The notes under the pieces were generated by a model. The model did not search any database. It was not told the DNA's origin and worked only from the letters and a program-made list of their open reading frames with translations. A DNA stretch of 64,000 nt from Candidatus Saganbacteria bacterium (GTDB taxonomy: Bacteria; Margulisbacteria; WOR-1; O2-12-FULL-45-9): the NCBI GenBank assembly GCA_016932255.1, contig JAFGDE010000015.1, forward strand, positions 29,694 to 93,693. The letters run 5' to 3'. Both the position numbers and the translations under genes were made by a program. Below, piece by piece: positions 2,369 to 39,445 of the stretch. The stretch's first letter is position 1. Every line of letters begins with the position of its first letter.

Positions 2369-2385
2369 GGGTCAGCTGCCTCCTT

Positions 2386-7562: not shown

Positions 7563-7578
7563 CATTTTGTTGGTCATT

Positions 7579-9989: not shown

Positions 9990-10010
9990 CCGATCACCAC
10001 CGGATAAATT

Positions 10011-10043
10011 TAGCCCTTATGCAAAGCCTACGCATAAGGGCTA
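10011..10043 (-). terminator. perfect 12-bp-stem hairpin between the 45-aa ORF and the U32-like gene (possible attenuating terminator)
   Basis: tagcccttatgc (10011-10022) / gcataagggcta (10032-10043), 9-nt loop. Flanks are A/T-rich but there is no long U-tract. Confidence 0.5.
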
Positions 10044-10060
10044 AAATATTTGATTACTCC

Positions 10061-10198: not shown

Positions 10199-10221
10199 AA
10201 TTTCACCTCCTCTTGTCTATC

Positions 10222-10250
10222 ATATTAAGCCTCATTATCTGGATTGTCAA
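10222..10250 (-). promoter_or_regulatory. near-consensus sigma70-type promoter for the 45-aa ORF
   Basis: On the minus strand: TTGACA (10250-10245), 17-nt spacer, TAATAT (10227-10222). It sits just after the stop of the upstream GT gene. Confidence 0.6.
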
Positions 10251-10254
10251 CCTT

Positions 10255-11076: not shown

Positions 11077-11077
11077 A

Positions 11078-15216: not shown

Positions 15217-15337
15217 AAATATATCTTTTCTCGGGTGAATGCCTAACGCCTTATAGATTATATCACACTCAATAGACCATAAAAACAACGACAGACCCTC
15301 GCTTTCGCCCGATATTTAAGGGAGAGCGCTCACTGGT

Positions 15338-15366
15338 TTGACTTCAACGTTATTTAGAGTTATATT
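15338..15366 (+). promoter_or_regulatory. sigma70-type promoter for the divergent rSAM pair 15399..18211
   Basis: TTGACT (15338-15343), 17-nt spacer, TATATT (15361-15366), 32 nt before ATG 15399. Confidence 0.55.
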
Positions 15367-15398
15367 GTTCACAGCAAAATGAATGCCAGGCAAGTATC

Positions 15399-17042
15399 AT
15401 GCATCTATTACTGATCGCGCCTCGTTGCCCTCCGAACCAGAGGACCATACCGCTAGGCTTGGCATATATCTCATCCTATCTGAAAAAGGCTGGCAAGAGC
15501 GTTGATTGCCTTGACCTAAACCACTCCGAAGAACCTGTCGCCCAAATCCTACAAAGCTGTTTTAGAAAGAAGCGCTATTCTATTATCTGTTGTGGCGGCC
15601 TTTCGATCTACTACCATCAGATCAAAGAGCTTGTTGAACTCTCACGCAAATATTGCCCCGGAGCAAAAATAGTTCTAGGCGGGGCCTTGGTCTCTTGTGA
15701 GCCCGAGTTGATGCTTGATTCACTTAGGCCGGACTACATTGTGATTGGCGAAGGGGAGCAAACAATCCTGGACCTGATCGACCACCTGGAAAATAAACAA
15801 CCTGTTGAGACAGTGAAAGGGCTCGCTTTCAGGAACAGTCATGGTAAATGCATGCTGTCCCTACCCCGGCCAAGACTGACCGACTTGGATGCCCTGCCGA
15901 TACCCGACTATGAAGCCTTCGGCTACGAACAGTATCTGGACAACATGCATCCGAGCGATATTGAGTTCTACGATATCTTCGATCATCCCCGCGTCCATAG
16001 CATCGTCGGCAGCCGGGATTGTCCTTTCCGGTGCACTTTCTGTTACCATGTTCTGGGCGGAAAATACACCCAAAGATCGATAAAATCAATAATGGACGAG
16101 CTTGAATATGTGGTCAAAAAATATCGGATCAATGTTATTTCCTTTTATGATCAGCTTTTCGCCAAGGACCCTGAGCGCGTCCTCGAGCTATGTTCTAAGA
16201 TCAAGCCTTTCCTTAACTCACTGCCATGGGATTGTAGATGGTTCGTGGCCGGTCTCAGGGTGCCGGATATTAGCGATCACTTGATAAAAGCAATGATCGA
16301 CGCTGGCTGCTTCATGATCTCGTTCGGCCTAGAAAGCTACAGCATTGACATCCTAAAAAGCTATAAGAAACGGACGACCCCGGAACAAATAGAGCGGGCG
16401 GTCCGAACCACTTTCAACAACAGGATCAGCTTGTGGGCGAATTTTGTCTTTTTTGATATTGCCGAAACAAAGCACACAGCTCAGATAACGCTGGATTACT
16501 GGATAAAGAACAGTCAGATTGGTTTGGAACTGACTCATTTGCGCCCCTTCCCCGGCACGGCTATCTACAAGCACTGCTTGGCCAAAGGAACTATTAAAGA
16601 CAAGCTGAAATTCGTCGCCGATGCCAGCCAGCAGTGTTTTAATACGAGCGACCAATTGACTGAGGAAGAATTCAATGAGGTCAGACATAGGATCGCTGAA
16701 GCCTGGGCTCTTCACAGAAAATATGCTGTACCGGAATCTTTGCAGCGTTCAAGCGACGGCACAATATGTTTTACCATAGAATGCCCTCATTGCAAAAGCT
16801 CCATTAAATACAGCAATTATCTATACATCTGGCCGGGAATGAAAATATATTGCCGCCGGTGTCGCAAGACCTTTTTCATGATATCCACCAGACGCAAGCT
16901 TATAAGCCTATCATTACTTTGCATCATTGCCAAAATTGTGCCGGGCAGACTTTGGCAATACTGGAACGGTCTGACCCGCGAATACTTGAGAAAAACTTTC
17001 GACTATGATGACGACAAGATCGAGATATTGTCAGACGAATAG
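15399..17042 (+). CDS. B12-binding-domain radical SAM protein with C-terminal zinc-ribbon and hydrophobic anchor
   Basis: MHLLLIAPR, IVLGGALVS, DCPFRCTFC. C-terminal ECPHC...YCRRC is followed by the helix LISLSLLCIIAKIV. Confidence 0.8.
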   Translation: MHLLLIAPRCPPNQRTIPLGLAYISSYLKKAGKSVDCLDLNHSEEPVAQILQSCFRKKRYSIICCGGLSIYYHQIKELVELSRKYCPGAKIVLGGALVSCEPELMLDSLRPDYIVIGEGEQTILDLIDHLENKQPVETVKGLAFRNSHGKCMLSLPRPRLTDLDALPIPDYEAFGYEQYLDNMHPSDIEFYDIFDHPRVHSIVGSRDCPFRCTFCYHVLGGKYTQRSIKSIMDELEYVVKKYRINVISFYDQLFAKDPERVLELCSKIKPFLNSLPWDCRWFVAGLRVPDISDHLIKAMIDAGCFMISFGLESYSIDILKSYKKRTTPEQIERAVRTTFNNRISLWANFVFFDIAETKHTAQITLDYWIKNSQIGLELTHLRPFPGTAIYKHCLAKGTIKDKLKFVADASQQCFNTSDQLTEEEFNEVRHRIAEAWALHRKYAVPESLQRSSDGTICFTIECPHCKSSIKYSNYLYIWPGMKIYCRRCRKTFFMISTRRKLISLSLLCIIAKIVPGRLWQYWNGLTREYLRKTFDYDDDKIEILSDE

Positions 17043-17056
17043 GATGTTCTGAAATA

Positions 17057-18211
17057 ATGGCAAGACGGGTCCTCAGGCAGGACATCATCAAGTCAAGGGC
17101 TTTTTATGATCCCGCTAGTCTCTCCCCAAGCGAAGAACTGCACTACCTGCAATGGGTCGCCTCAAAGACCAACACGCTTGTTACCGGTTCCAAATGCTCC
17201 TGTCAATGCCTTTTTTGTTTTAGGAAGTATTATCCCAAGGAATCAAAGATATTTTATTTGCCGGAAGTAAAACTGGGACAACTGCGACGAATCTTCCCCT
17301 ACCTCCGTAAAGACCGAGCAATAAGGATTGGCATGTTCGGTAACATCATGGACGGTGATTTTTTTGACCACGACCAGGCCATGCCCATATTAGAGAGCTT
17401 ACGCCAAAGATTCCCCCAGACTGAATTAGTGATCAATTCCTCCAGAGGCACAAATCTAAATAAACCAGCCATTCGGAACATGGCCGATTATAAGAACATT
17501 CTGTTACGCTTACAATTTGTCAGTGCGAACAAAAAGAACAGGGATATGCTCGTAAAAAGACCCAGCACGGATACTGAGATAACAAGCGTTTTAGGCTGGC
17601 TGAGGAAGTACCAGTTGCCTTTCGAAATTGAACTGGTCGCTATCCCTCATTTGCTCGGCTGGAAAGATATCGAACGCACATTTTTCTTTCTTGACGATTA
17701 TGCCCCGGTCCGGATCAAAGTCTACCTGTTCTCTTTTACAAAATACTACATAAAAGAGCTTACTTTCAGCAACAACAAGAAACTTTTAAGAGAATTCTAT
17801 TCTCTGGTGAATAAAGTCAGCAATAAAATCGGTACAAGGATAGACCCCTTCCCACGACCTGTCAGTAAAGGCGACGTTCAGCCCGATCTCTTGAGGGTCA
17901 AGCAGATAAGAAGAACATATAAAGGTAGAATTCTTTTTCTTGTCTCCCAAATGGCCTATCCAGCAATAAAAAAACACATATCCGATACAGATGGCATTAA
18001 AGTCAAAATGGCTAAGAACCTATTCTTTGGCGGGAATATCTCTGTAGCTGGATTATTGACTGCAGAAGATTATTTGCAAGCGGCCGGAAAAGAAGAATTC
18101 GACGTCCTGGTGGTTTCAAGCAAACCATTCAACTATGCCGGGTATGATCTCAAGGGTGATCACAAGCGCCTGCTGAAACAAAGGCTCGGCAAAAAAGTGC
18201 TTTATATTTAA
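17057..18211 (+). CDS. radical SAM protein, DUF512-like C-terminus
   Basis: CSCQCLFCF contains CxxxCxxC. The C-terminal FFGGNISVAGLLTAEDY resembles the DUF512 (TIGR03279-type) motif. No PDZ domain seen. Confidence 0.55.
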   Translation: MARRVLRQDIIKSRAFYDPASLSPSEELHYLQWVASKTNTLVTGSKCSCQCLFCFRKYYPKESKIFYLPEVKLGQLRRIFPYLRKDRAIRIGMFGNIMDGDFFDHDQAMPILESLRQRFPQTELVINSSRGTNLNKPAIRNMADYKNILLRLQFVSANKKNRDMLVKRPSTDTEITSVLGWLRKYQLPFEIELVAIPHLLGWKDIERTFFFLDDYAPVRIKVYLFSFTKYYIKELTFSNNKKLLREFYSLVNKVSNKIGTRIDPFPRPVSKGDVQPDLLRVKQIRRTYKGRILFLVSQMAYPAIKKHISDTDGIKVKMAKNLFFGGNISVAGLLTAEDYLQAAGKEEFDVLVVSSKPFNYAGYDLKGDHKRLLKQRLGKKVLYI

Positions 18212-26289: not shown

Positions 26290-26523
26290 TCAAATATTCA
26301 ACAATTGTTTTATCTTGGCCTTATCGAACCCAACGACTATTTGACCGCCTATATCCAACACGGGCACGCCCATCTGTCCGGATTTGCTGATCATTTCCTG
26401 GGCCGCGCTCTGATTGGCCGAAACATCAACATCTTCGAATTCAATATTGTTCTCGGCCAAGAACTGTTTGGTCATTTTACAATAAGGACAGGTCGGGGTC
26501 GAGTAGATCTTTATGTTCGTCAC
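26290..26523 (-). CDS. glutaredoxin-like protein (NrdH/YruB-type)
   Basis: IKIYSTPTCPYCKMTKQFL, GVPVLDIGGQIVVGFD; 77 aa. Confidence 0.85.
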   Translation of the reverse strand: MTNIKIYSTPTCPYCKMTKQFLAENNIEFEDVDVSANQSAAQEMISKSGQMGVPVLDIGGQIVVGFDKAKIKQLLNI

Positions 26524-26540
26524 AACGCCGCCTCCTTGTT

Positions 26541-26771
26541 CTACAGCCGGCCTTCTTCAAGCAGTCTTCTTTTTTCCTGGCGATGGCCGCATTCTTCGCA
26601 ATTGCTCGGATCAAACTCTATTTCCCGGCAAACAGCACAGGCCAGCACGACCTGGCCATGATATTTGCGTAAAGCCAATTGAGCAGAGCAGTTCGGACAG
26701 GTGAGACGCTGGCCGACCCTGCTCGAGATCTCGATCGGTGTGTCACAGATAGGACAGTTCTGTTTTGACAT
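26541..26771 (-). CDS. zinc-ribbon protein, function unknown
   Basis: Three Cys pairs: CPIC...CPNC, CAVC, CEEC; 76 aa. Confidence 0.5.
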   Translation of the reverse strand: MSKQNCPICDTPIEISSRVGQRLTCPNCSAQLALRKYHGQVVLACAVCREIEFDPSNCEECGHRQEKRRLLEEGRL

Positions 26772-26774
26772 ATC

Positions 26775-26981
26775 TTAGACCTCGTTCAGTTCCTTGATCA
26801 ATTCATCCGCATCCAGGCCATGGACCTCGGCCGCCTGGCCAATGGTCTCACCGTGAGCAATAACGCAACCCAGGCAATGCATCCCTTTCGACATGAGGAT
26901 CGGCGCGATCTGTGGCTTGAGTTTCAGGGCTTCGGCGATGGTCGTTTCTTTTTTCAGTTTACTCTCCGACATATCAACCAC
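26775..26981 (-). CDS. DUF1858 / hybrid-cluster-protein-associated redox disulfide domain protein
   Basis: TIAEALKLKPQIAPILMSKGMHCLGCVIAHGETIGQAAEVHGLDADELIKELN. Confidence 0.7.
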   Translation of the reverse strand: MVDMSESKLKKETTIAEALKLKPQIAPILMSKGMHCLGCVIAHGETIGQAAEVHGLDADELIKELNEV

Positions 26982-27061
26982 TCTCCGGTCATTATTCTAA
27001 CAGTTCCATTCGAAAATTCAAGCTGGCCAAAGCAGACAAAAACTTGACAAGTATTAAAATA

Positions 27062-27077
27062 TGTGAAAAAATTCACA
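27062..27077. promoter_or_regulatory. Rex operator (TGTGAA-N4-TTCACA) in the rex / redox-operon divergent region
   Basis: tgtgaaaaaattcaca is a perfect palindromic match to the Rex box half-sites. It overlaps a putative promoter (TTGACA 27044-27049, 17 nt, AAAAAT) 5 nt before the rex ATG. Confidence 0.7.
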
Positions 27078-27081
27078 AGCG

Positions 27082-27699
27082 ATGAAGAAAAGCATCCCGA
27101 AAAAGACCGTCCAGCGCTTGCTACTATATTATAGATCGCTCAACTTTCTTTTACAGCAAGGCATTAAGAACATATCCTCAAAGAGCCTGGCCGGCCTGAT
27201 GGAGATCAGGGATTCCCAGGTGCGTAAGGATCTTTCTTACTTTGGCCATTTAGGCAAACGTGGCGCGGGCTACGACGTGCTGGAACTACGAGATAAGATC
27301 GCCCGGATTCTGGGTATCGAACAAGTAAAGAACGTTTGCATTATCGGTATGGGCAGCCTCGGCTCCGCCCTGGCCGCTTACAAAGGCTTTGCCGCTTTAG
27401 GCTTCAAGGTCAGAGCGGTATTTGACAATGCCAGCCACAAGGTAGGCCGCAAGATCCGCGGCTATGAGTGCCGTCCAATGGAAGCGATGGAAAAGATCAT
27501 CCGCCAAGAGGACATAGAGATCGCCGTCCTGACCGTACCCGCTGATGCCGCGCAGGAAATCGCTGTCCGGCTGGAGAAATGCGGGATCAAGGCTATCCTC
27601 AATTTCGCTCCGGTAAAACTTTCGCTCTCCAGGCGGGTCAAGGTCAGCAATGTCGACCTGGCCATGGAGATAAAAACACTCTCCTTCTTCATTAAATAG
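27082..27699 (+). CDS. rex: redox-sensing transcriptional repressor Rex
   Basis: Winged helix VQRLLLYYRSL...SSKSLAGLMEIRDSQVRKDLSYFGHLGKRGAGYDV, followed by the Rossmann motif IIGMGSLGSALAAY. Confidence 0.9.
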   Translation: MKKSIPKKTVQRLLLYYRSLNFLLQQGIKNISSKSLAGLMEIRDSQVRKDLSYFGHLGKRGAGYDVLELRDKIARILGIEQVKNVCIIGMGSLGSALAAYKGFAALGFKVRAVFDNASHKVGRKIRGYECRPMEAMEKIIRQEDIEIAVLTVPADAAQEIAVRLEKCGIKAILNFAPVKLSLSRRVKVSNVDLAMEIKTLSFFIK

Positions 27700-27704: not shown

Positions 27705-27733
27705 TTGACAATTGGGGTAGTTTGCTGTATCAT
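27705..27733 (+). promoter_or_regulatory. sigma70-type promoter of the hydrogenase operon
   Basis: TTGACA (27705-27710), 17-nt spacer, TATCAT (27728-27733). Confidence 0.55.
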
Positions 27734-27742
27734 TACCGTGTT

Positions 27743-27758
27743 TGTGATTTATTTCACA
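27743..27758. promoter_or_regulatory. Rex operator between the -10 box and the start codon of the hydrogenase operon
   Basis: tgtgatttatttcaca (with flanks, TTGTGATTTATTTCACAA) has one mismatch to TTGTGAA-N4-TTCACAA. It lies 10 nt before ATG 27769. Confidence 0.7.
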
Positions 27759-27768
27759 AGTCAAGCTT

Positions 27769-28830
27769 ATGCAATACGTAACGCTTAAGAAAGAACGGTT
27801 CGACGACTTCATCTCCCGGCTGGCCCAGGACAAGAAAGTGGTCGCTCCGGTGGCTCAGGACAATAATGCTTATGCCTTTGAGCCGGTCACCTCAGGCAGG
27901 CAGATTGCCAAGGACTATATCCCGACGATCCTGCCGCCCAAGAAATACTTCATGCCCCAATACGAGACCCTGGCCACTTTTAATATCGGCAACGGCCAGC
28001 AGATGGAACCGGTCGTGGAATATGAGAGGATGATCCTGTTCGGCGTGCGCACCTGCGACCTGGCCGGTATCCAATGCCTGAACATGGTTTTTTCTGAACG
28101 GCCCAAGGACCACAATTATCTGGTACGCAAGAGCAAGATAATCATCATCGGCTATGAGTGTAATGATTATTGCGATGAATATGCCAGCTGCCGCCTGGTC
28201 CACAACCATACCCCTAACGGCGGCTATGACCTGTTCTTCACTGATCTGGGCGATAAATTCATCGTTCATATCAATACCCAGGCCGGCGACGAGATAATCG
28301 AAAAGACTAAACTGTTCGAAGAAGCGAACGAAAAGGATCTTAAGGCGCTGGAAGCCCTGCGCGAAAAGAAACGCAAGATCTTTGCCAATGAAGTGCCGGT
28401 CGTTCACGAGAATATCCCGCAGGTCTTTGAAAAAAGCTATAACTCTAATATCTGGGAAGATCTAGGCAAGAAATGCTTGTCCTGCGGCAACTGCACCAAT
28501 GTCTGCCCGACCTGCTACTGCTTTGACGTGATCGATGAACCAAATCTGGACCTAAAGACCGGCAAGCGCTACCGCCGCTGGGATTCCTGCCAGAGCGAGA
28601 CCTTTGCCAAGGTCGCTGGCGGCGAAAGCTTCCGCGAAGAGCGCGCGGCCAGGCAAAGGCACCGCTATTACCGCAAGTTTAAATACCCTGTCGATAAGTT
28701 TGCCCGGCTGTTTTGCACGGGATGTGGCCGCTGCAGCCGTACCTGCATGGCTAAGATCAACCTGAAAGAGACTGTCACCGCCCTGGTCGCAGAACAGGGC
28801 CTGACAGATAAGAAGGCCGGTAAAGAATGA
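27769..28830 (+). CDS. NiFe hydrogenase (group 3b-like) beta subunit, 4Fe-4S protein (HydB/AsrA-like)
   Basis: CLSCGNCTNVCPTCYC and CTGCGRCSRTC ferredoxin-type motifs. First gene in a beta-gamma-delta-alpha order, as in sulfhydrogenase operons. Confidence 0.75.
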   Translation: MQYVTLKKERFDDFISRLAQDKKVVAPVAQDNNAYAFEPVTSGRQIAKDYIPTILPPKKYFMPQYETLATFNIGNGQQMEPVVEYERMILFGVRTCDLAGIQCLNMVFSERPKDHNYLVRKSKIIIIGYECNDYCDEYASCRLVHNHTPNGGYDLFFTDLGDKFIVHINTQAGDEIIEKTKLFEEANEKDLKALEALREKKRKIFANEVPVVHENIPQVFEKSYNSNIWEDLGKKCLSCGNCTNVCPTCYCFDVIDEPNLDLKTGKRYRRWDSCQSETFAKVAGGESFREERAARQRHRYYRKFKYPVDKFARLFCTGCGRCSRTCMAKINLKETVTALVAEQGLTDKKAGKE

Positions 28831-29690
28831 CACTGAAGCGAGTGATCCTTAAGGACTCTGAGTACGAGATCAAGCGGGCCAGGATCCTGCGCACCAAACA
28901 GATGACCGAGACCGAGAAGTATTTTGAGATCCAGCTGCCCGGCGGTGAAAGCCTGGACCATGAGCCCGGGCAGTTCGTTGAGGTCTCGTTACTGGGTATC
29001 GGGGAAGCCCCGATCTCTATCTCTTCCTCCCCCACCAAACGCGGCTCTTTTGAGCTGGTGGTACGTGATGTAGGCAAATTCACCGGTCAGGGCGGCAGGT
29101 TGACCGGCGCCCTGCACAAGCTGGAGGCCGGCGATGAAGTGGGCATTCGCGGCCCGTTCGGCAAGGGCTTTCCTGTCAGGATCCTGGAGGGCAATGACCT
29201 TCTGTTCGTTGCCGCCGGCCTGGGCGTTGTTCCCTTGCGCTCGCTGATCAACTACGTTATCGACAATCGCCGCGATTTCGGCAAGGTCACGATACTGCTG
29301 GGCTGCCGCACGCCGCAGAACATGCTTTTTGCCGACGAAGTTAATGAATGGAACAAGCGTTTGGATGTCAACCTCAACTGCACGGTCGACAAGGCCGATC
29401 CTGAATGGAAAGGCAATGTCGGCCTGATCACTTCGCTGATCCCGGGCGTAACCCTTGAGCCGGAGAGGACCTTCGGCGTGGTGGTCGGACCGCCGATCAT
29501 GTACAAGTTCGTCATCAAGGAACTGCTTAAAAAACAGATCCCGGAGCGCCAGATCCTGCTCTCGCTGGAGCGGCACATGAAGTGCGGTCTGGGCAAATGC
29601 GGCCACTGCCAGATCAATGACGTTTATTGCTGCCAGGACGGCCCGGTCTTCAGTTACGATAAGACCAAAAATTTCCCTGAGGCGGTTTAA
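28827..29690 (+). CDS. hydrogenase gamma subunit, FAD/NAD(P)-binding oxidoreductase with 2Fe-2S (HydG/AsrB-like)
   Basis: PGQFVEV, GIGEAPISI, FVAAGLGVVPLRS. C-terminal CGLGKCGHCQINDVYCC. 4-nt overlap with the beta gene. Confidence 0.8.
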   Translation: MTLKRVILKDSEYEIKRARILRTKQMTETEKYFEIQLPGGESLDHEPGQFVEVSLLGIGEAPISISSSPTKRGSFELVVRDVGKFTGQGGRLTGALHKLEAGDEVGIRGPFGKGFPVRILEGNDLLFVAAGLGVVPLRSLINYVIDNRRDFGKVTILLGCRTPQNMLFADEVNEWNKRLDVNLNCTVDKADPEWKGNVGLITSLIPGVTLEPERTFGVVVGPPIMYKFVIKELLKKQIPERQILLSLERHMKCGLGKCGHCQINDVYCCQDGPVFSYDKTKNFPEAV

Positions 29691-29696
29691 TTAACT

Positions 29697-30464
29697 ATGG
29701 CTAAACCAAAAGTCGCGTTCTTTGATTTCGCCTGCTGCGAGGGCTGCCAGCTGCAGGTCGCCAATATGGGCGAAATGCTGCTGGACGTGCTCGGGGCTAT
29801 TGATGTTGTTGAGTTCCGCGAAGTCATGTCAGAAATTGGCCCGGACAAGATCGATGTGGCCATTGTTGAAGGCAGCATCACCGACCATCATGCGGTCGAA
29901 CGCATCAAGAAGATCCGCGAACGCGCCTCTATCCTGATCGCCTACGGCGCCTGTGCCTGTATTGGCGGGGTCAACGGTATGAAGAATAATTTCAAGCTGG
30001 ACGACATCCGCAAAGAAGTCTACGGCAAGGACTACAAATATTTCGATTCAGTCGAGACCAGGGCCGTGCACCAGGTCGTCAAGGTCGACTACAAGGTCAA
30101 CGGCTGTCCGGTCTATATCCCGGAGTTCGTCAAAGTACTCAAGGCCGCGCTGGCGGGCCTGCCCTACGAAGTGCCGGATTACTCGGTCTGTGTCGAGTGC
30201 AAACTCAACGAGAACGTCTGCATGTACGACCGCGGCCTGACCTGCCTGGGGCCGGTGACCAAGGCCGGCTGCAATTCCTGGTGCATCAATAATAACAACA
30301 TCTGCTACGGTTGCCGCGGCATGGTCAGCAACCCGAACGAGAACGGCGCCAAGGATGTTATCGCCAAATACAACATTCCCATGGACCTGGTCGTCAACAA
30401 GATGAACATGTATAACAAATGCAGGGAGATCGATCAACGTGAGCAACCCAAAAAGAAACATTAG
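29697..30464 (+). CDS. NiFe hydrogenase small (delta) subunit
   Basis: KVAFFDFACCEGCQL, YGACACIGG, CVECK...C...GC Cys clusters; 255 aa. Confidence 0.85.
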   Translation: MAKPKVAFFDFACCEGCQLQVANMGEMLLDVLGAIDVVEFREVMSEIGPDKIDVAIVEGSITDHHAVERIKKIRERASILIAYGACACIGGVNGMKNNFKLDDIRKEVYGKDYKYFDSVETRAVHQVVKVDYKVNGCPVYIPEFVKVLKAALAGLPYEVPDYSVCVECKLNENVCMYDRGLTCLGPVTKAGCNSWCINNNNICYGCRGMVSNPNENGAKDVIAKYNIPMDLVVNKMNMYNKCREIDQREQPKKKH

Positions 30465-31773
30465 TGTTAACGTCGAGTACCTGACCCGTGTCGAAGGGCA
30501 CGGCAATATCGTGGTCGACGTCAAAAACGGCGTGATGAAGACCTGCGAGCTGCAGATAGTGGAATCGCCGCGTTTCTTTGAGGGCATGATCAAGGGACGT
30601 TCGATCTTTGAAGCCCAGCACATCACCTGCCGCATCTGCGGCATCTGCTCCTGCGGCCACACCCTGGCCTCGATCCAGGCGGCTGAGGACGCGATCGGTT
30701 TTAAACCCAGCAAACAGACCACTGAACTGCGCAAGTTCCTGCTCCACATGGAGAACCTGGACAGCCACCTGCTGCACATCTACCTGCTGGTCGCCCCGGA
30801 CCTTTTGGGCGTTAAGAGCTTTGTGCCGCTGATCGACTCGCACAACAAGGTCGTGCGCCGGGCGCTCAGGATGAAAAAAGCCTGTAACGACGTCTGCGAC
30901 ATCCAGGTCGGCCGCCATGTGCACCCGATCTCAGCCATTGTCGGCGGCTTCACCAAGCTGCCCAGAGAAAAAGATCTCGACGCCATGCTCAACATCCTCT
31001 ATAACATGAGGCCTGACATGGAAGCGACCGTTGAGCTGGCCGCCACCCTCAAGTTCCCGGAGTTCGAGCGCGACACCGAGTACGTTGCCCTGGTCAGCGA
31101 CGACCCTGAATATCCGATGCTGATCGGCGATGTCGGCTCGACCGACGGCGTGCGCAAGAACAAGAAAGAATACAAGAGCATCACCAATGAGTTCGTGGTG
31201 CCGCATTCAAGTGCTAAGCACACCAAACTAAGCCGCGGCTCTTACGCGGTTGGGGCACTCGCCCGCTTCAACCTGAACGCGGACAAGCTGCATCCCAAAG
31301 CCAAAGAAATTGCTAAGGCTATCGGCCTGAAACCTAAATGCATCAATCCATATCTTAATACCGCGGCCCAGCTGGTCGAATGCGTTCACTCCCTTGAAGA
31401 GGCCATCCGCATCATGGAAGAGCTCAAACAGAGCGGCATCAATTATGACGAAGAGGTCATCGTCGGCCTGAACGAGAAAGGCACCATCCCGGTCAAGCCG
31501 GGCAACGGTGTGGGCGCGGTCGAAGTGCCTCGCGGCATACTTTTCCACAACTACGAAGTGGATGAAAAAGGCATCATCACCAAGGCCAACTGCATCATCC
31601 CGACCAATCAAAACGTCAACAACGCCGAGCAGGACCTGAAAAAGATCGTGCCGGAGATCCTGGATAAGTCCGACGAGGAGATCACTCTGCTGCTGGAGAT
31701 GTTGGTCCGGGCTTATGATCCGTGTATTTCCTGTTCCGCCCACTTCCTGGACGTTAAATTTGTTAACCGCTGA
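30439..31773 (+). CDS. NiFe hydrogenase large (alpha) subunit
   Basis: LTRVEGHG, N-terminal Ni site RICGICSCGH, C-terminal DPCISCSAH plus the 9-aa extension FLDVKFVNR (protease substrate). GTG start overlaps the small-subunit gene. Confidence 0.9.
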   Translation: MSNPKRNISVNVEYLTRVEGHGNIVVDVKNGVMKTCELQIVESPRFFEGMIKGRSIFEAQHITCRICGICSCGHTLASIQAAEDAIGFKPSKQTTELRKFLLHMENLDSHLLHIYLLVAPDLLGVKSFVPLIDSHNKVVRRALRMKKACNDVCDIQVGRHVHPISAIVGGFTKLPREKDLDAMLNILYNMRPDMEATVELAATLKFPEFERDTEYVALVSDDPEYPMLIGDVGSTDGVRKNKKEYKSITNEFVVPHSSAKHTKLSRGSYAVGALARFNLNADKLHPKAKEIAKAIGLKPKCINPYLNTAAQLVECVHSLEEAIRIMEELKQSGINYDEEVIVGLNEKGTIPVKPGNGVGAVEVPRGILFHNYEVDEKGIITKANCIIPTNQNVNNAEQDLKKIVPEILDKSDEEITLLLEMLVRAYDPCISCSAHFLDVKFVNR

Positions 31774-32227
31774 AGTTAAGCAAGCGCTTACTCCCGCAAC
31801 AACAGGCATTACACTGATCATTACCGTCGGCAATACTTTGCGCAGCGATGACGGCGTCGGGCCCTATATCGCCGAAGGCTGCTCCAGGCTGAAAGCTGGA
31901 TTGGCCTTGCTGGACGTAGGGGATAAGCCGGAGAACGGTATTGATCAGGCAGTTAACAGCAAAGCAAGCAAGGTTGTGTTCATTGACGCGGCTGATTTCG
32001 GCGGCCATGTCGGGGAAGCCAGGCTGGTCCCGAAAGAACAGATCCCGCAGACGAGCTTAAGCACGCATACGTTCCCGTTGCCGGTCATTGCTAAAATGAT
32101 CGAAGAGGATGCCAAGGCTAAAGTTCTCTTCCTGGGCATCCAGCCAGCTAAGGTGGAACTGGGCGAAGGATTGAACAAAAAAGTTAGGGCGACCGGAGAT
32201 GAAATAATCGCCCTGTTAAAGGAGTAA
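31715..32227 (+). CDS. hydrogenase maturation endopeptidase (HycI/FrhD-like)
   Basis: IITVGNTLRSDDGVGPYI, VVFIDAADFGGHVGE, STHTFPL. Start uncertain: ATG 31715 overlaps the large subunit by 59 nt, and TTG 31760 is an alternative. Confidence 0.7.
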   Translation: MIRVFPVPPTSWTLNLLTAEVKQALTPATTGITLIITVGNTLRSDDGVGPYIAEGCSRLKAGLALLDVGDKPENGIDQAVNSKASKVVFIDAADFGGHVGEARLVPKEQIPQTSLSTHTFPLPVIAKMIEEDAKAKVLFLGIQPAKVELGEGLNKKVRATGDEIIALLKE

Positions 32228-32232
32228 CGATC

Positions 32233-32475
32233 ATGCACGAAATGCACTTATTGACCGATCTATTGAACGACCTGCTCAAAGCCGGCAATGACAATCAGGC
32301 CAAGAAGATCACCAGGGTCTATCTGAGGATGGGCACTTTTACTGAGATAAACGAAGACATCCTGCGTCACTTTTTCACAGAGAAAGCCAAAGGAACTATC
32401 GCTGAAGCGGCAGAGATAAGCATTGAACCTTCTGAAACAAGGGAACTGCGCCTGCTTTCATTCGATTGTGAGTAA
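32233..32475 (+). CDS. HypA-like protein, N-terminal (nickel-binding) domain only; zinc-finger domain absent
   Basis: MHEMHLLTDLLNDLL...AKKITRVYLRMGTFTEINEDILRHFF...GTIAEAAEISIE parallels the HypA N-domain, including the MHE start. The ORF ends at 80 aa with no CxxC...CxxC. Confidence 0.55.
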   Translation: MHEMHLLTDLLNDLLKAGNDNQAKKITRVYLRMGTFTEINEDILRHFFTEKAKGTIAEAAEISIEPSETRELRLLSFDCE

Positions 32476-32477
32476 TT

Positions 32478-33785
32478 ATGTGCTACGCGATCCCCGGAAA
32501 AGTCATAGGTTTCGAAGGAAAACTCGTTAAGGTCGAGTATTTCGGCGAGGTCAAGCAGGCGGTCAATGAGTTTGACGATCTTGAGCTCGGCGATTATATT
32601 TACGCCCAGGGCGGCTATACTATTAAAAAGATTCCTGAGGCTGAGGCCCTTTCCATCCTGGCTACTTGGAAAGAGACCTTTTTTGAATTGCAGGAACTTG
32701 ATCTGAGACTGTCGCGCCTTGATCTGGAAAAGGCTGGCATAGACAAAAAGTTCGCCCTGATCCTGGACAAGGCGGCCGAAGACCTAGCGCTTAAAGAAAC
32801 CGACCTGCTTTACCTGCTCAACCTGGAAGGCGAAAAAGAGCTCAAACTGCTTTATAAAGTCGCTAATTTCCTGCGCCAGAAGCATCTGGGCAACTCCTGC
32901 TGTGTGCACGGCATTATTGAGTTCTCCAACCACTGTTCTCAAAACTGCGCTTATTGCGGTATCTCGACCCACAACCGCGACCTCAGGCGCTATCGTATGA
33001 CCAAACAGCAGATCGCGGACGCGGCTTATGATGCGATCGAGACCTGGGGCTTTAAGGCCCTGGTCCTGCAAAGCGGCGAGGATCCCGCCTATTCCGTCGC
33101 TGATCTGGCTGAGATCATCCAGGAAATAAAACAACGGTCAGCTGTGCTGATCTTCATCAGCTGCGGCGAGGTCGGCTTAAACGGTCTGGAAAAGCTGTAT
33201 CAGGCAGGCGCCAGGGGTTTGCTGATGCGTTTTGAGACCGGCAATCCGAAACTCTATGAGAAACTTCATCCTGACAGAAGCTTAGCTTCGCGTCTGGCGC
33301 ATCTGAAAAAGGCCTTTGAACTTGGTTATTTATTGATCACCGGCGGCCTGATCGGCTTACCCGGCCAGACCAGGGAAGATATCCTGAAAGATATTCTTTT
33401 GACCAAGGAACTGCGCACGGAAATGTATACTTTTGGCCCGTTCCTGCCCCACCCCAACACCCCTCTGGCCCTGACCCCTCCGCCATCTGTTAAAGAAGTG
33501 TTGAAAACCCTTGCCGTGGCCAGGCTAGCCGACGCCAAAGATGGTAAGATAGTCGTAACGACCGGTTTTGAAACCCTCCATCCCCAGGCCCGGGAGGAAG
33601 GACTGGTCGCTGGCGCCAACTCCGTGATGCTCAATGTCACACCGGCAGAGTTCAGTAAAAATTACCTGATCTATCCCAAGCGCGCGCATTCAGGCGAGCG
33701 TTTGAAAGAACAGATCGACACGACACTTAAGATCCTGCGTGATCTTGGCCGGGCACCGACAGACTTAGGGGTAACTCATGCTTAA
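32478..33785 (+). CDS. hydE: HypC-like domain fused to HydE-type radical SAM maturase
   Basis: Residues 1-70, MCYAIPGKVIGFEGKLVKVEYFGEVKQAVNEF..LGDYIYAQGGYTIKKIPEAEA, carry the HypC/HupF hallmark. The remainder is HydE-like: GIIEFSNHCSQNCAYCGIS, RRYRM, VLQSGEDP. Confidence 0.75.
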   Translation: MCYAIPGKVIGFEGKLVKVEYFGEVKQAVNEFDDLELGDYIYAQGGYTIKKIPEAEALSILATWKETFFELQELDLRLSRLDLEKAGIDKKFALILDKAAEDLALKETDLLYLLNLEGEKELKLLYKVANFLRQKHLGNSCCVHGIIEFSNHCSQNCAYCGISTHNRDLRRYRMTKQQIADAAYDAIETWGFKALVLQSGEDPAYSVADLAEIIQEIKQRSAVLIFISCGEVGLNGLEKLYQAGARGLLMRFETGNPKLYEKLHPDRSLASRLAHLKKAFELGYLLITGGLIGLPGQTREDILKDILLTKELRTEMYTFGPFLPHPNTPLALTPPPSVKEVLKTLAVARLADAKDGKIVVTTGFETLHPQAREEGLVAGANSVMLNVTPAEFSKNYLIYPKRAHSGERLKEQIDTTLKILRDLGRAPTDLGVTHA

Positions 33786-35166
33786 TTCATTCATTGATGA
33801 AGCGAAAATAAACGAGCTGCTGGCCAAGACCCGGCCTGATAACAAGCAGGTCAAGGATATCATTCAGAAATCGCTCAGCAAACAGCGCCTGGATCTGGCA
33901 GAGACCGCCGCGTTGCTCAATGTGGAGGATAAAGACCTGCTGAATGAGCTCTTCACCGGAGCAAAAAGGCTTAAAGAAGAGGTCTACGGTAACCGTATCG
34001 TCCTGTTCGCTCCCCTCTATGTCGGCAATAACTGCACCAATGACTGCTCTTACTGCGCTTTCCGCTGTTCTAACTCCGAGGCCAGGCGCAAGACCTTGTC
34101 CGACCAGGAATTAAAGGACGAGATCATCGCGCTGGAAAAGAAAGGCCAGAAAAGGCTGATCCTGGTCTTTGGCGAACACCCCGAGTACAGCGGCGAGTTC
34201 ATGGCCAATGCCGTCAAGACCGCTTATACGACCAAGTTCGGTCCGGGCGAGATCAGGCGCGTTAATATCAATGCCGCGCCGCTCGATGTCGCTGGATACA
34301 AGAAATTGAAAGCGGTCGGTATTGGCACCTATCAGATCTTTCAGGAGACCTATCATCAGGAAACATATAAGAGATATCATCCTCGCGGCAAAAAAGCTGA
34401 TTTTCTCTGGCGCTTGTACGGTTTGGACCGGGCGCAACAAGCAGGCCTGGACGATGTCGGTATCGGCGCTTTGTTCGGCCTGTATGACTGGAAATTCGAG
34501 GTCATGGGCCTGCTGTCACACGCCGTTCACCTGGAGCAGGAGTTCAACGTCGGCCCGCATACGATCTCTTTCCCCAGGCTGCAGCCGGCCCAGGGGGTTA
34601 ATATCCCGGAAACACACCTGGTCAGCGACGACGATTTTAAAAGACTGGTCGCGATATTGCGGCTGTCCGTGCCCTATACCGGAATGATCCTGACGGCGCG
34701 GGAACACCCTGAACTGCGACGGGAAGTGATCGAACTGGGTTGCTCCCAGATCGATGCTGGTTCACGCATTGAAATGCAGGGTTATTCTCAGGCGCTGGGC
34801 CAGGAACAGGAAAGCGACCGGCAGCAATTCAAGCTGGGTGACACTCGTTCACTGGACGAGGTGATGCGGGAACTGGTCAGCGACGGCTACACGCCTTCCT
34901 TTTGCACGGCCTGCTACCGCCTGGGCCGCACCGGCGAGCATTTCATGGAACTGGCCATCCCCGGTTTTATCCATAAATACTGCATGCCTAATGCCATCAT
35001 GACGCTCAAGGAATACCTGCAAGACTACGCTTCGCCTGAGACCAGAAATAAAGGGGAACAAGCGATCAAGCAAGCGATCGCTAAACTTCCTTCAAACCAG
35101 CTGCGCAATGAGGTCATCAAACGGCTTGGCCGGATCGAAAAAGGCGAGCGGGACCTTTACTTCTAG
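33778..35166 (+). CDS. hydG: HydG-type radical SAM tyrosine lyase (H-cluster CO/CN maturase)
   Basis: CTNDCSYCAF rSAM motif. The C-terminal auxiliary-cluster motif SFCTACYRLGRTGEHFMELAIPGFIHKYC (CxxCx22C) distinguishes HydG from ThiH. Confidence 0.8.
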   Translation: MLNSFIDEAKINELLAKTRPDNKQVKDIIQKSLSKQRLDLAETAALLNVEDKDLLNELFTGAKRLKEEVYGNRIVLFAPLYVGNNCTNDCSYCAFRCSNSEARRKTLSDQELKDEIIALEKKGQKRLILVFGEHPEYSGEFMANAVKTAYTTKFGPGEIRRVNINAAPLDVAGYKKLKAVGIGTYQIFQETYHQETYKRYHPRGKKADFLWRLYGLDRAQQAGLDDVGIGALFGLYDWKFEVMGLLSHAVHLEQEFNVGPHTISFPRLQPAQGVNIPETHLVSDDDFKRLVAILRLSVPYTGMILTAREHPELRREVIELGCSQIDAGSRIEMQGYSQALGQEQESDRQQFKLGDTRSLDEVMRELVSDGYTPSFCTACYRLGRTGEHFMELAIPGFIHKYCMPNAIMTLKEYLQDYASPETRNKGEQAIKQAIAKLPSNQLRNEVIKRLGRIEKGERDLYF

Positions 35167-35178: not shown

Positions 35179-35207
35179 TTGACAGCGCTGTAAACCGCTT
35201 CTACAAT
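35179..35207 (+). promoter_or_regulatory. near-consensus promoter placed for a leaderless transcript of the response-regulator gene
   Basis: TTGACA (35179-35184), 17-nt spacer, TACAAT (35202-35207). ATG 35214 follows 6 nt later with no SD. Confidence 0.5.
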
Positions 35208-35213: not shown

Positions 35214-35582
35214 ATGGCAAAGATCCTGGTCATCGACGACCAAGAAAGCATGCGCACCATCACAGCTCAGATGCTAAAGGATGCCGGCCATGAAGTGACA
35301 ACAGCCGCTGACGGCGCCGAAGGCCTGAAACTCTTTGAAGATGCCCCTGCCTCCTACAAACTGATCGTAGCCGACGTGAATATGCCGAAGATGGACGGGT
35401 TCGAACTGCTCAAGACCGTCAAGGCAAAGCACCCTGAATTGCCCGTTGTCCTGGTGACCGGGACCAATGAAGAGATCGCTGATTATGTGGGCAAGGAATA
35501 CAAAGCCGAAGCGGTGCTGAAAAAACCCTACATCCTGGATGAAGCGCTTAAGACCATAGAATCGATCCTTAAACAGACCTAA
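35214..35582 (+). CDS. response regulator, receiver domain only
   Basis: KILVIDDQESMR, LIVADVNMPKMDG, VVLVTG, LKKPY; 122 aa. Confidence 0.85.
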   Translation: MAKILVIDDQESMRTITAQMLKDAGHEVTTAADGAEGLKLFEDAPASYKLIVADVNMPKMDGFELLKTVKAKHPELPVVLVTGTNEEIADYVGKEYKAEAVLKKPYILDEALKTIESILKQT

Positions 35583-36745
35583 AAAGGATCGAGATACCAG
35601 ACATCGTCCTGCTTGCCCGTGCTGGTTTGGCCGCCGATGACCCAGAGCCTGCTTTGATGAGCGGTACAGGTATGGCCGCAGCGAGGTGTAAAATCAGCGT
35701 CACTGGCCCGCAGCCAGTTAACGCCGTCATTGGAATACCAGACATCATTATTGTAAGGACTGGCTTCGGTCGAACCGCCGATCACCCACATAAAATCATC
35801 TATCCTGGCCGCGGCATGATCATACCTGGGAGCAAAAGCCGCGCTGCTTGTGGCTTGGGTCCAGCTAATCCCATCGCTTGAGTACCAAACATCGTTCTTA
35901 TAAGCACCGTCATAGCCGCCAATAAGCCAGATCTTATTATCAAAGCTCAGCAAGCAGTGGCCTTTCCTTGGTGAAAAGGCGGCTGAGGTCGTGGCCACTT
36001 CCCAGGTACCGCCCAGTTGCGAGTACCAGACATCATTATACAGGCCGCTGTTGCCCTCTCCACCAATGACCCACATATAGGCAACACCGTCATGCTCATA
36101 GCGCAGGCTGGCATGGTCGCACCTGGCCCCGAATTCCGCAGTGGCGGTTGCCTGTTCCCAGATGTAGTAATCATCGGTGTACCAGACATCGTTCTTTCTT
36201 GAGCCGCCAGTTTCACGTCCGCCGATCACGAAAGGTATCGAGATTGTGTCGGTCATATAGTATTGCGCTGTGCTATGGCCTTCACGGCAGCTGAAGGCCG
36301 CTTCCGGCGTTCCTTCCATCCATGCCCCAACGTTGACCAGGACCCAAGCGTCATTGGTCAATGTCCCGCTGTTGCCGCCGATGATCCAGAGATAATAATT
36401 AGTATTAATTCTCGTCGTCACGGAGGCATGGCCGCTCCTGCTTGAAAAACCCGGCGCATCCGTCATCAAGGTCCAGCTAAGCGCTATGGTCGTGGTCGTT
36501 GTGCTTGTGGTCGTGGTCGAGCTGGTCGTTGTAATTGTCGTTGTCGATGTTACGATCGGCACAGTATTGCTAGTGGTCGGCGTGGGCAGGGTCGTCACGG
36601 TCCCTGTTGTCGTCGTCGTAGAGGTCGATGGCGCAAAAGGGCTATCGCCGCAGCCGGCCAGGAATTTATTAGCAGAAAAGCTCAACACGGCCATAACGAT
36701 CAAAATGGCCAGAACAAATCGCTTTTTTATCCCGCCTTCATTCAT
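35579..36745 (-). CDS. Kelch/beta-propeller repeat lipoprotein with poly-Thr linker
   Basis: Lipobox FLAGC, a linker TSTTTTTGTVTT...TTTSSTTTTSTTTTT, then about six repeats of the NDVWYS.DG..W / H....... WVIGG type. Confidence 0.65.
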   Translation of the reverse strand: MNEGGIKKRFVLAILIVMAVLSFSANKFLAGCGDSPFAPSTSTTTTTGTVTTLPTPTTSNTVPIVTSTTTITTTSSTTTTSTTTTTIALSWTLMTDAPGFSSRSGHASVTTRINTNYYLWIIGGNSGTLTNDAWVLVNVGAWMEGTPEAAFSCREGHSTAQYYMTDTISIPFVIGGRETGGSRKNDVWYTDDYYIWEQATATAEFGARCDHASLRYEHDGVAYMWVIGGEGNSGLYNDVWYSQLGGTWEVATTSAAFSPRKGHCLLSFDNKIWLIGGYDGAYKNDVWYSSDGISWTQATSSAAFAPRYDHAAARIDDFMWVIGGSTEASPYNNDVWYSNDGVNWLRASDADFTPRCGHTCTAHQSRLWVIGGQTSTGKQDDVWYLDPF

Positions 36746-37897: not shown

Positions 37898-39445
37898 ATG
37901 CCGATATATATAGCAGAGAATACCATGAGTATCAGATCAATAGCACCCAAACAATTCCGTCACCAGGCAACGCAACTGCCAAGACAACCCCTTTTACAAA
38001 GGGCATTCTGTCGTAATTCTGACCGGGCTTTTATACAGGCGCTCGGTTCCTATAATGATTTTTTAGCTATGCTCCCTGCTGATAATCCCTTATGGCAGAT
38101 GAAAAATCTGCCCCAGCACGTGGTCCATGGCGGCCTGAGCCCATTGCAGCACACTTATAACGCTTTAAAACTGCTGGCGACAGACGCCATAGACTCAACT
38201 GGCAATTTACAACTGCCCGGCCTGACCAGGCCAATGCCAGAATTGCTGAGGATCGCCCTGCTTTATCATGATATCGGCAAACTCGAGGATCCTTTCAGCT
38301 CCGATCATCCGGCAAGATCAGCTGAGCTTGCCCGGCAAATCCTTAGCGATCCGGAATTGTCCGGCGTTGGTCCGCTTAATGAAAACGAACTTTCCCTGGT
38401 CCTGCTCTTGATCAGAACCCATGACCTGCTGGGTGAGTTGACCAAATTATCGTCCGCCGGCGAGGTCGACCAGGCCGGGATGCTTGACTTGATCGAGTGC
38501 GAGCTTAATCCCGATCAGTCAGCCTCTGCGCAGCTGCCCAAGCTCTTTCAATTGCATTGCCGGATCTCTCTGGCAGATATCCGATCGATCCCCGGTTTAA
38601 AGAAACAGGTCTGGGCCGCTACTCAGTTATCCACGAGCTTGCTGGAAAGCCTGCCGCAGGAACAACCAACTGCCGGATCGCTGGAGGCCGATTTCCGGCC
38701 ACCGATCAAGGCAAGGACCGGTCCATCCATGCTGTCCAATGATATGCGGCGCCTGAACCGCTTCCTGCCTTCACTGCTGTCCAAGGTGCAGCAAGCGGTC
38801 TTTCAGGTCAGTCTGACTTTCAGCAACGACTACCTGAGTTTCAACAATGGGATAAATAAGATCGATTATGAGGATGGCCGCTTCATTGCCCGCTCTTTCC
38901 TGAGAGCCGGCATCAGCGAGCTTGTGCTGACAGAATTCCTGGACCGGCAGATGATCTCTTCCCTCAAGGAGATCCTGGAGGCCGCCAGTCTAGGCCAGGT
39001 CAGCTCTCTTCTGCCAGCAGAACTTACCAAATCGCCGGCCGTTGCCGGACTGCGGAAACTCTCCAGCGAAGAAACGACGGTCAAGACCATCCCTGGTTCC
39101 TACAAGCACTATACTAACGAAAATAATTTCATCAATATCATAAACAACGACCTGATCGAGGCCCGGCCGCACCAAAAGAACGGCGAGGTCCGCTGCGGCG
39201 CTTATCTTACCGGGCTTTCACTGACCCCGGAAGAGGCCTTTAAAACGCTTTTTATCGCTGATCCTGATTACCGGGACTGCGGTTATTTCGTGATCGCTTT
39301 TGATGTGCTGGACCCGCAGCTGGCAGCTAGGATCAGCCGGAACGGAATAGAATTGTTCCTGGAAGAAGGGATCAGGCTGGGCGATCCTCAGATCAGTGTC
39401 AGATATCAGGGGCCGAATTTCCTGATAGAGGACGTGGCGGCCTAG
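37898..39445 (+). CDS. HD-domain protein with unassigned C-terminal domain (possible HYD1-type ART-like)
   Basis: HD motif LRIALLYHDIGKLEDPFSSDHPARSAELA. C-terminal ~110 aa: YKHYTNENNFINII...CGAYLTG...YFVIAFDV. The start may be ATG 37925 (MSIRSIAP). Confidence 0.55.
   Translation: MPIYIAENTMSIRSIAPKQFRHQATQLPRQPLLQRAFCRNSDRAFIQALGSYNDFLAMLPADNPLWQMKNLPQHVVHGGLSPLQHTYNALKLLATDAIDSTGNLQLPGLTRPMPELLRIALLYHDIGKLEDPFSSDHPARSAELARQILSDPELSGVGPLNENELSLVLLLIRTHDLLGELTKLSSAGEVDQAGMLDLIECELNPDQSASAQLPKLFQLHCRISLADIRSIPGLKKQVWAATQLSTSLLESLPQEQPTAGSLEADFRPPIKARTGPSMLSNDMRRLNRFLPSLLSKVQQAVFQVSLTFSNDYLSFNNGINKIDYEDGRFIARSFLRAGISELVLTEFLDRQMISSLKEILEAASLGQVSSLLPAELTKSPAVAGLRKLSSEETTVKTIPGSYKHYTNENNFINIINNDLIEARPHQKNGEVRCGAYLTGLSLTPEEAFKTLFIADPDYRDCGYFVIAFDVLDPQLAARISRNGIELFLEEGIRLGDPQISVRYQGPNFLIEDVAA

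Follow-up and report, generated by a model that had tools for sequence, protein, structure and literature searches.

A 64-kb stretch of a Candidatus Saganbacteria genome (contig JAFGDE010000015.1, forward-strand positions 29,694 to 93,693; hereafter 'the window', within which all coordinates are numbered) encodes a group-3b-type NiFe hydrogenase operon whose structural genes are followed by hydG and by a gene fusing HypC to a HydE-type radical S-adenosylmethionine (SAM) enzyme, HypC::HydE. We propose, with a probability of roughly 60%, that this Rex-controlled operon for a cytoplasmic hydrogenase carries its own maturation module, in which HydG and HypC::HydE do the job of HypD, HypE and HypF. 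We give slightly less than even odds to the broader proposal that many anaerobic bacteria dispense with HypD, HypE and HypF when building the iron-carbonyl-cyanide half of the NiFe site, and use tyrosine-derived carbon monoxide (CO) and cyanide (CN) supplied by HydG and delivered via HypC::HydE. Typing of the open reading frames (ORFs) with Pfam and NCBIfam resolved eight tightly packed genes on the + strand between 27769 and 35166, from the hydrogenase beta subunit through HydG:

27769-28830, + strand: hydrogenase beta subunit (4Fe-4S; 353 aa); Fer4_22; sulfhyd_HydB 252 bits and sulfhyd_ShyB 249 bits, both under the equivalog cut-offs
28827-29690, + strand: hydrogenase gamma subunit (FAD/NAD(P), 2Fe-2S; 287 aa); FAD_binding_6, NAD_binding_1, DHODB_Fe-S_bind; NF006220 266 bits
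29697-30464, + strand: hydrogenase delta (small) subunit (255 aa); Oxidored_q6; sulfhyd_HydD 162 bits
30439-31773, + strand: NiFe hydrogenase alpha (large) subunit, group-3b type (444 aa); NiFeSe_Hases; RICGICSCGH and DPCISCSAH
31715-32227, + strand: HycI-type maturation endopeptidase (ORF of 170 aa); TIGR00142 111 bits; TIGR00072 103 bits (cut-off 47)
32233-32475, + strand: HypA, N-terminal nickel-binding domain only (80 aa); PF01155, profile positions 1-68 of 112
32478-33785, + strand: HypC::HydE fusion (435 aa); PF01455 at residues 1-64; TIGR03956 238.6 bits
33778-35166, + strand: HydG, radical SAM tyrosine lyase and CO/CN synthase (462 aa); TIGR03955 505.9 bits (cut-off 312)

These assignments bear out the gene identities given in an earlier reading made from the letters alone (the sequence-only reading), including the HypC::HydE fusion and the truncated HypA, all on the + strand. 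Its count and spacing need revision. It placed nine genes at 27705-35166, a number reached only if rex (27082-27699), which lies outside those coordinates, is counted along with the eight ORFs; and it described overlaps or gaps of no more than about 6 nt, which several junctions exceed (in order, by ORF calls, -4, +6, -26, -59, +5, +2 and -8 nt, the last being the overlap of hydG with the HypC::HydE gene). The -59 junction shortens to -14 if the endopeptidase starts at the TTG at 31760, which is probably its true start.

The group-3b affinity suggested by the sequence-only reading is also supported. All four subunits match best the sulfhydrogenase HydB/G/D/A or ShyB/C/D/A families, in the beta-gamma-delta-alpha architecture, and the closest match of the large subunit in the PDB is the alpha subunit of Pyrococcus furiosus sulfhydrogenase I (250 bits). 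Scores fall far under the NCBIfam equivalog cut-offs (275 bits against 880 for the alpha subunit), which makes the enzyme a distant bacterial relative of the P. furiosus sulfhydrogenase, sharing its subunit order and domain content. The large subunit carries the group-3b NiFe-binding motifs, RICGICSCGH in the N-terminal region and DPCISCSAH in the C-terminal region, and ends in a nine-residue extension, FLDVKFVNR, after the latter; the motifs are likewise present in 48 related large subunits. The Pyrococcus sulfhydrogenase itself is matured by HypCDEF.

The HypA of the window begins MHEMHLL, with the N-terminal MHE nickel site present, and it has no CxxC pairs, its zinc domain being missing (TIGR00100 44.7 bits, cut-off 88.1). 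This shortened form predominates among HypA genes adjacent to a fusion, 45 of 56 of which encode proteins of about 80 residues with an MHE start and no CxxC; full-length HypA occurs mainly alongside HypB beside Ech-type enzymes. The presence of a HypA lacking its zinc domain, with no HypB nearby, suggests a simplified nickel-insertion step.

The fusion protein consists of a HypC domain (about residues 1-70), a conserved helical linker and a HydE-type radical SAM barrel (about residues 96-435). An AlphaFold model built on a 116-sequence alignment (mean pLDDT 91.9, pTM 0.91) suggests that the two domains hold a defined arrangement, and the modelled barrel superposes on Thermotoga maritima HydE (3CIX) with a TM score of 0.94 and a root-mean-square deviation of 1.8 Å. 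The HypC domain scores 40.3 bits on PF01455 (cut-off 28.5) and 39.5 bits against HypC of Thermococcus kodakarensis. Its start, MCYAIPG, is invariant across 116 fused sequences, and Cys2 with it. The equivalent of Escherichia coli His51 (His44/45 in T. kodakarensis) is Gln44 in the window and a glutamine in 116 of 116 fused sequences. His51 is part of the surface where HypC meets HypD, and HypD is bound more weakly when it is exchanged (PMC9002611); loss of this histidine is consistent with a HypC that has ceased to act with HypD.

The HydE domain departs from its canonical relatives at specific positions. On TIGR03956 it scores 238.6 bits, below the curated cut-off of 254.6, and it scores 225 bits against T. 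maritima HydE; unfused HydEs adjoining HydG in FeFe-hydrogenase or HydF contexts reach 330.7 and 359.6 bits on the same model. We aligned T. maritima HydE with two unfused HydEs and ten fused sequences, and counted conservation more widely in 116 fused sequences. In T. maritima numbering, the radical-SAM cysteines C63/C67/C70 are unchanged in all ten fused proteins (C153/C157/C160 in the window, invariant in 116), as are Met224 and Met291 (Met316 and Met384, invariant in 116) and Thr268/Thr269 (T361/T362, at least 90% conserved across the 116). Leu157 is retained in the canonical and in all ten fused proteins, and Val105 in the canonical proteins and in nine of the ten fused ones, the remaining one having leucine. 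Four other positions retained in canonical HydEs are replaced in the fused proteins: Arg54 by histidine in ten of ten (His144 in the window), Thr134 by phenylalanine or cysteine (Phe226), Arg155 by glycine or alanine (Gly247) and Lys309 by arginine in nine of ten (Arg402). Replacement of Arg54, Thr134 and Arg155 is family-wide among fused HydEs. The auxiliary-cluster cysteines Cys311, Cys319 and Cys322, present in the two unfused proteins, are gone, and an invariant cysteine has been gained two residues before the new histidine, within the motif N-S-C-C-V-H-G (Cys142-x-His144 in the window). In canonical HydE, Met224 and Met291 carry a mononuclear Fe(I)(CO)2(CN)S intermediate, and Arg54, Thr134, Arg155 and Thr269 touch the cyanide ligands at the site of the proposed pairing of two such units (PMC11826987, PMC10114646); mutating one residue of the conserved product site, made up of one threonine and two arginines, impairs FeFe maturation (PMC10114646). 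The methionines that hold the iron unit are kept in the fused enzymes, and the product-site residues Arg54, Thr134 and Arg155 are exchanged.

The Cys-x-His signature follows the fusion closely. An exhaustive search, clustered at 50% identity, gave 150 representatives, 119 of them with a recognisable motif. Cys-x-His was present in 15 of 15 representatives with a recognisable N-terminal HypC and in three more with truncated HypC starts, and every representative of the Arg type (91/91) lacked HypC. The sole clearly unfused Cys-x-His protein, P0262, is encoded directly after a NiFe large-subunit gene, whose product ends in DPCMSCAAHFLKVRWNEA, and before HydG. Other HydEs with N-terminal extensions (P0272, P0283 and similar) were excluded from the family, having no HypC start motif and retaining Arg54. 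Judged by this signature, the fused HydE is a distinct paralog, set apart from the FeFe-type HydE. It is not the only HydE of every genome that carries it, as canonical unfused HydEs coexist with the fusion.

The HydG of the window is canonical, with 58% identity (512 bits) to HydG of Thermoanaerobacter italicus (4WCX) and with both the radical-SAM CX3CX2C motif and the C-terminal CX2CX22C auxiliary-cluster motif. The association of HydG with the fusion extends to single polypeptides: two of the cluster representatives, 906 and 881 residues long (L093:10001-12721 and L096:10001-12646), are HypC::HydE::HydG triple fusions, and each retains the C-[VI]-H-G motif as well as the C-terminal motif of HydG. 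The longer is encoded directly after a beta-gamma-delta-alpha-HycI operon; the shorter directly precedes NiFe small- and large-subunit genes, with an 84-residue HypA nearby, and its HypC domain diverges further (GDWILYTTDY), the key position holding neither histidine nor glutamine. HydE::HydG fusions without HypC retain Arg54.

A second type of HydG, of about 499 residues, accounts for 16 of 40 fusion-linked HydGs (for example L004:11981-13480, L037:597-2114 and L051:11347-12834). It remains above the TIGR03955 cut-off (463 bits), and its C-terminal motif, FCTAGYRCGRTGKCIM...C (CX5CX5CX13C), replaces the canonical CX2CX22C; these four cysteines could alter the auxiliary cluster or the dangler-iron site. 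A 369-residue match to HydG in L060 proved to be ThiH.

The module is widespread. At E <= 1e-10, a protein search with the fusion gave 2982 relatives; of these, the top 120 are nearly all 430-440 residues long with HypC and radical SAM domains; named sources among these 120 are Margulisbacteria/Saganbacteria (73-77% identity), Caldatribacterium, Omnitrophota and Ozemobacteraceae. Scanning one genome for each species turned up 400 encoded relatives, the best 80 loci of which add Brevinematales/Spirochaetota, Planctomycetia metagenome-assembled genomes (MAGs), Riflebacteria, Auribacterota and UBP13; the closest related locus is in a Margulisiibacteriota MAG (80% identity). One contig binned as Candidatus Falkowbacteria (L014) was discarded as evidence for the candidate phyla radiation (CPR), since its scores are identical to those of a WOR-1 contig (L015) for all shared genes and it is probably mis-binned. 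Over this range of lineages, a HypDEF-free route may tentatively be envisaged, at slightly less than an even chance, for Margulisiibacteriota/Saganbacteria, Omnitrophota, Atribacterota (Caldatribacterium), Brevinematales and others, some 400 species representatives in total.

We examined gene neighbourhoods in 83 independent loci, reaching about 10 kb to either side of the module, by calling ORFs and searching them with the window proteins, the E. coli Hyp proteins and group-4 subunits taken from two of the loci. A NiFe large subunit of any class was found in 67 loci, and most of the loci without one end early at a contig end. The large subunit is of the 3b type in 47 loci, of group 4 (Mbh/Mrp-like or Ech-like) in 17, and of another kind in three, including a group-1 NiFeSe-like enzyme (L051). 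HycI is present in 57 loci, HypA in 55, HydG (within 10 kb) in 39, Rex beside the module in 33 and HypB in six; four Ech-type loci (L006, L028, L065, L074) retain both full-length HypA and HypB. The usual order is structural genes, HycI, HypA (80 residues), HypC::HydE, sometimes Rex, and HydG. HypD, HypE, HypF and free-standing HypC were found in none of the 83 neighbourhoods, and HypD, HypE and HypF also gave no match there by tblastn at E <= 1e-3; none of the three was found in eight further loci. HycI and HypA are thus found near the fusion and HypD, HypE and HypF never are, so that the genes for nickel insertion and proteolysis travel with the fusion and those for iron-ligand synthesis do not.

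This arrangement is far beyond chance, and the comparison of operon order across related genomes that the sequence-only reading had proposed recovers the same order in several phyla. That reading also held that hydE and hydG within a NiFe operon are atypical and that this context gives the fusion its meaning. The second point is borne out by a module that tracks NiFe operons of four classes, by the distinct HydE paralog and by the triple fusions; 'atypical' holds relative to the textbook systems only, the arrangement being widespread in about 400 species-representative genomes.

As the sequence-only reading had noted, HypB, HypD, HypE, HypF and HydF are missing from the window. Pfam searches of essentially all ORFs of at least 130 residues found none of these and no FeFe hydrogenase in the 64 kb, and the outcome was the same with phmmer and tblastn of E. 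coli HypA-F and with tblastn of an FeFe HydA and a HydF fragment. Logan contigs reached via proteins from the window ends were short and without hydrogenase-related genes. Other Saganbacteria/WOR-1 loci carry HypC::HydE and HydG beside a 3b operon (L010, L013), or 5 kb apart from each other with no hydrogenase or HydF nearby (L091, L092). Saganbacteria have been reported to be without FeFe hydrogenases (PMC6349859).

Where FeFe genes do adjoin the module, they come with a HydE of their own. An FeFe hydrogenase lies within 10 kb of the fusion in just six of the 83 loci. In four Omnitrophota loci (L023, L042, L045, L083) the order is 3b NiFe operon, HycI, HypC::HydE, Rex, sensor kinase, NuoF-like protein and FeFe hydrogenase, followed by a NuoE-like protein, a response regulator, HydG and an unfused HydE; the FeFe hydrogenase of this subclade belongs to group A6 (825 bits). 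In L037, HydF, HydG and an unfused HydE lie upstream of the NiFe operon. Wherever an FeFe hydrogenase or HydF is present, it is accompanied by a separate canonical HydE, and in organisms with hydrogenases of both types HydG may well act in the two pathways.

In the maturation route that we propose, HydG would, as in FeFe maturation, cleave tyrosine and use its auxiliary cluster as the site for assembling an Fe(CO)x(CN)y-cysteine unit. The HydE domain would strip the cysteine backbone by means of its radical-SAM site, leaving a mononuclear, sulfur-bound iron-carbonyl-cyanide on Met316 and Met384. Rather than two units being paired for HydF, a single iron unit would be passed by the putative remodelled exit site, Cys142-x-His144 in place of the Arg/Thr/Arg site, to Cys2 of the tethered HypC, which would stand in for free HypC and insert the unit into the apo large subunit. 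The truncated HypA would supply nickel, and HycI would remove the nine-residue tail.

Several observations weigh against this route. The product of HydG has two CO and one CN, whereas the NiFe site has one CO and two CN, and a ligand exchange must be assumed; HydG does make one surplus cyanide per unit, so the ligands for the NiFe site would be available. The window HydG is ordinary, 61-66% identical to HydGs of cultured, FeFe-hydrogenase-bearing Halanaerobiales, and may for that reason simply serve an FeFe hydrogenase elsewhere. HydG is out of reach in 44 of the 83 loci, including complete Caldatribacterium genomes, and in six Omnitrophota loci an FeFe hydrogenase stands between the fusion and HydG. 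The absence of HypD, HypE and HypF covers only the 64-kb window and about 10 kb around the relatives' modules, and that of HydF and FeFe hydrogenase only the window, and some Margulisbacteria and Atribacteria do have FeFe hydrogenases (PMC6349859, PMC11227167).

It seems unlikely, though worth serious attention, that canonical HypCDEF is encoded elsewhere and that HydG and HypC::HydE only supplement it, for example by supplying the CO ligand or pre-loaded iron, or that the fusion acts as a HypC paralog dedicated to one hydrogenase and equipped with an additional enzymatic domain. An auxiliary role of this kind would accommodate both the local scope of the HypDEF absence and a CO-to-CN ratio that is wrong for a complete NiFe iron site. 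The full-length HypA and HypB of the four Ech-type loci indicate, moreover, that canonical Hyp parts can coexist with the fusion, and JS1 Atribacterota, which may or may not include carriers of the fusion, possess a canonical HypF-C-D-E (supplement of PMC11227167); beyond this, the supplementary tables of PMC6349859 and PMC11227167 hold nothing on hyp or hyd genes of the relevant lineages. Against it stand the consistent lack of HypD, HypE, HypF and free HypC at 83 loci where HycI and HypA are usually adjacent, and the glutamine that replaces the HypD-contact histidine throughout the fused HypC domains.

We consider it improbable that hydE and hydG are ordinary FeFe maturases that merely adjoin a NiFe operon, with an FeFe hydrogenase and hydF elsewhere and a HypC of no NiFe-specific meaning. 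HydG is canonical in every test, and both the group-A6 enzyme between fusion and HydG in some Omnitrophota and the HydF, HydG and HydE upstream of the NiFe operon in L037 speak for such an explanation. Yet in these very loci the FeFe genes have a separate canonical HydE, and the fused HydE falls under its family cut-off and lacks Arg54, Thr134 and Arg155, at a product site where mutation impairs FeFe maturation (PMC10114646). The fusion tracks four classes of NiFe operon and only rarely (6/83) an FeFe hydrogenase, the triple fusions lie beside NiFe genes, and no FeFe hydrogenase has been reported in Saganbacteria (PMC6349859). A further explanation, that the hydrogenases carry another set of iron ligands, such as Fe(CO)2(CN) from HydG in place of Fe(CN)2(CO), would dispense with the ligand swap and sits well with a module that is a coherent unit co-inherited with its hydrogenases. 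It is nonetheless very improbable, given large subunits with fully canonical L1/L2 cysteine motifs and C-terminal extensions that closely match the P. furiosus sulfhydrogenase, and one module serving four hydrogenase classes, each with canonical relatives.

Control of the proposed maturation operon by Rex is suggested by the following features around it:

27061-27078, + strand: Rex-operator-like inverted repeat ATGTGAAAAAATTCACAA, upstream of rex (TTGTGA-N6-TCACAA, at most one mismatch)
27082-27699, + strand: rex, redox-sensing transcriptional repressor (205 aa); NF003995 256 bits (cut-off 126); Put_DNA-bind_N and CoA_binding
27705-27733, + strand: sigma-70-like promoter TTGACA-17-TATCAT (11/12 matches), between rex and the beta-subunit gene
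27742-27759, + strand: Rex-operator-like inverted repeat TTGTGATTTATTTCACAA, just 3' of the -10 hexamer (exact pattern match)
35179-35207, + strand: promoter-like TTGACA-17-TACAAT, ahead of the response-regulator gene
35214-35582, + strand: single-domain response regulator (122 aa); Response_reg

The two Rex-box matches (TTGTGA-N6-TCACAA, at most one mismatch) are the only ones in the 64 kb, against 0.10 expected by chance. A sequence scan found no comparably strong promoter and no convincing terminator within the operon, and none parting hydE and hydG from the structural genes. With two Rex boxes, one promoter-like site and no strong internal promoter or terminator, a single Rex-repressed transcript spanning the beta-subunit gene to hydG is likely, and the second promoter-like site suggests that the hydrogenase transcription unit ends at hydG. 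Homologs of the response regulator occur near HydG in 13 related loci, sometimes adjoining a Cache/HAMP sensor kinase.

Divergent from rex on the - strand (26290-26981) are three small genes, whose products are a 77-residue glutaredoxin-like protein (CPYC), a 76-residue protein that has two CxxC motifs (CPIC, CPNC) and matches nothing in Pfam, and a 68-residue DUF1858 protein; they may be redox-related partners in the Rex regulon. On the other side of the operon, a gene at 35579-36745 (- strand) encodes a Kelch-repeat beta-propeller protein with a long threonine-rich, low-complexity linker; Kelch-repeat proteins are also found downstream of HydG in the WOR-1 locus L091. Farther upstream, at 7447-18211, three B12-binding radical SAM genes (7447-8910, 13852-15288, 15399-17042), a further radical SAM gene (12813-13859) and a gene for a DUF512 protein are interspersed with three glycosyltransferase genes, a cluster that may specify a modified-glycan or lipid pathway. 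Large ORFs (483, 273, 526 and 515 aa) at 917-3207 (-), 5913-7493 (-) and 37898-39445 (+) have no Pfam match at E <= 1e-5.

The component families of the module are known, and their combination matches neither the Hyp nor the Hyd system. With canonical HypA-F maturation, as in E. coli and T. kodakarensis, it shares the MHE nickel-binding domain of HypA, a HycI-type endopeptidase and a cleavable large-subunit tail; it differs in having no HypD, HypE or HypF in the window or beside the 83 related modules and HypB at only six of them, in the fusion of HypC to a radical SAM enzyme with loss of the HypD-contact histidine, and in a HypA without its zinc domain. With H-cluster maturation by HydE, HydF and HydG it shares a canonical HydG and the fold, radical-SAM site and two iron-carrying methionines of HydE, but the window has no HydF or FeFe hydrogenase, the product site and auxiliary cluster of HydE are replaced, and HydE is fused to HypC and embedded in NiFe operons. 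HypX, which makes CO aerobically, is comparable as an accessory, lineage-restricted enzyme supplying a diatomic ligand to the NiFe iron site; it belongs to an unrelated family, uses formyl-tetrahydrofolate, works with HypCDEF and supplies only CO.

We found no description of the fusion, or of HydE or HydG in NiFe maturation, in full-text literature that included work on Margulisbacteria/Saganbacteria, Atribacterota, Auribacterota and CPR. Members of the fusion family are named in databases as 'FeFe hydrogenase maturase HydE', 'biotin synthase', radical SAM protein or 'HypC', names that could wrongly imply FeFe hydrogenases in genomes without any. The proposed route is directly testable: one carrier of the module, Caldatribacterium, has been brought into pure culture (PMC13408713), the small size of the operon makes it suitable for heterologous expression, and Fourier-transform infrared spectroscopy (FTIR) with labelled tyrosine would give a clear readout. 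A HydE whose reaction ends with a mononuclear iron product would, in addition, help to settle what canonical HydE releases. HypCDEF is regarded as the universal builder of the Fe(CN)2(CO) unit of NiFe hydrogenases, and the anaerobic origin of its CO ligand is a long-standing open question. If our interpretation is true, the module would represent a second, evolutionarily hybrid maturation route for NiFe hydrogenases, and would identify where the CO ligand comes from, under anaerobic conditions, in the organisms that carry the fusion.

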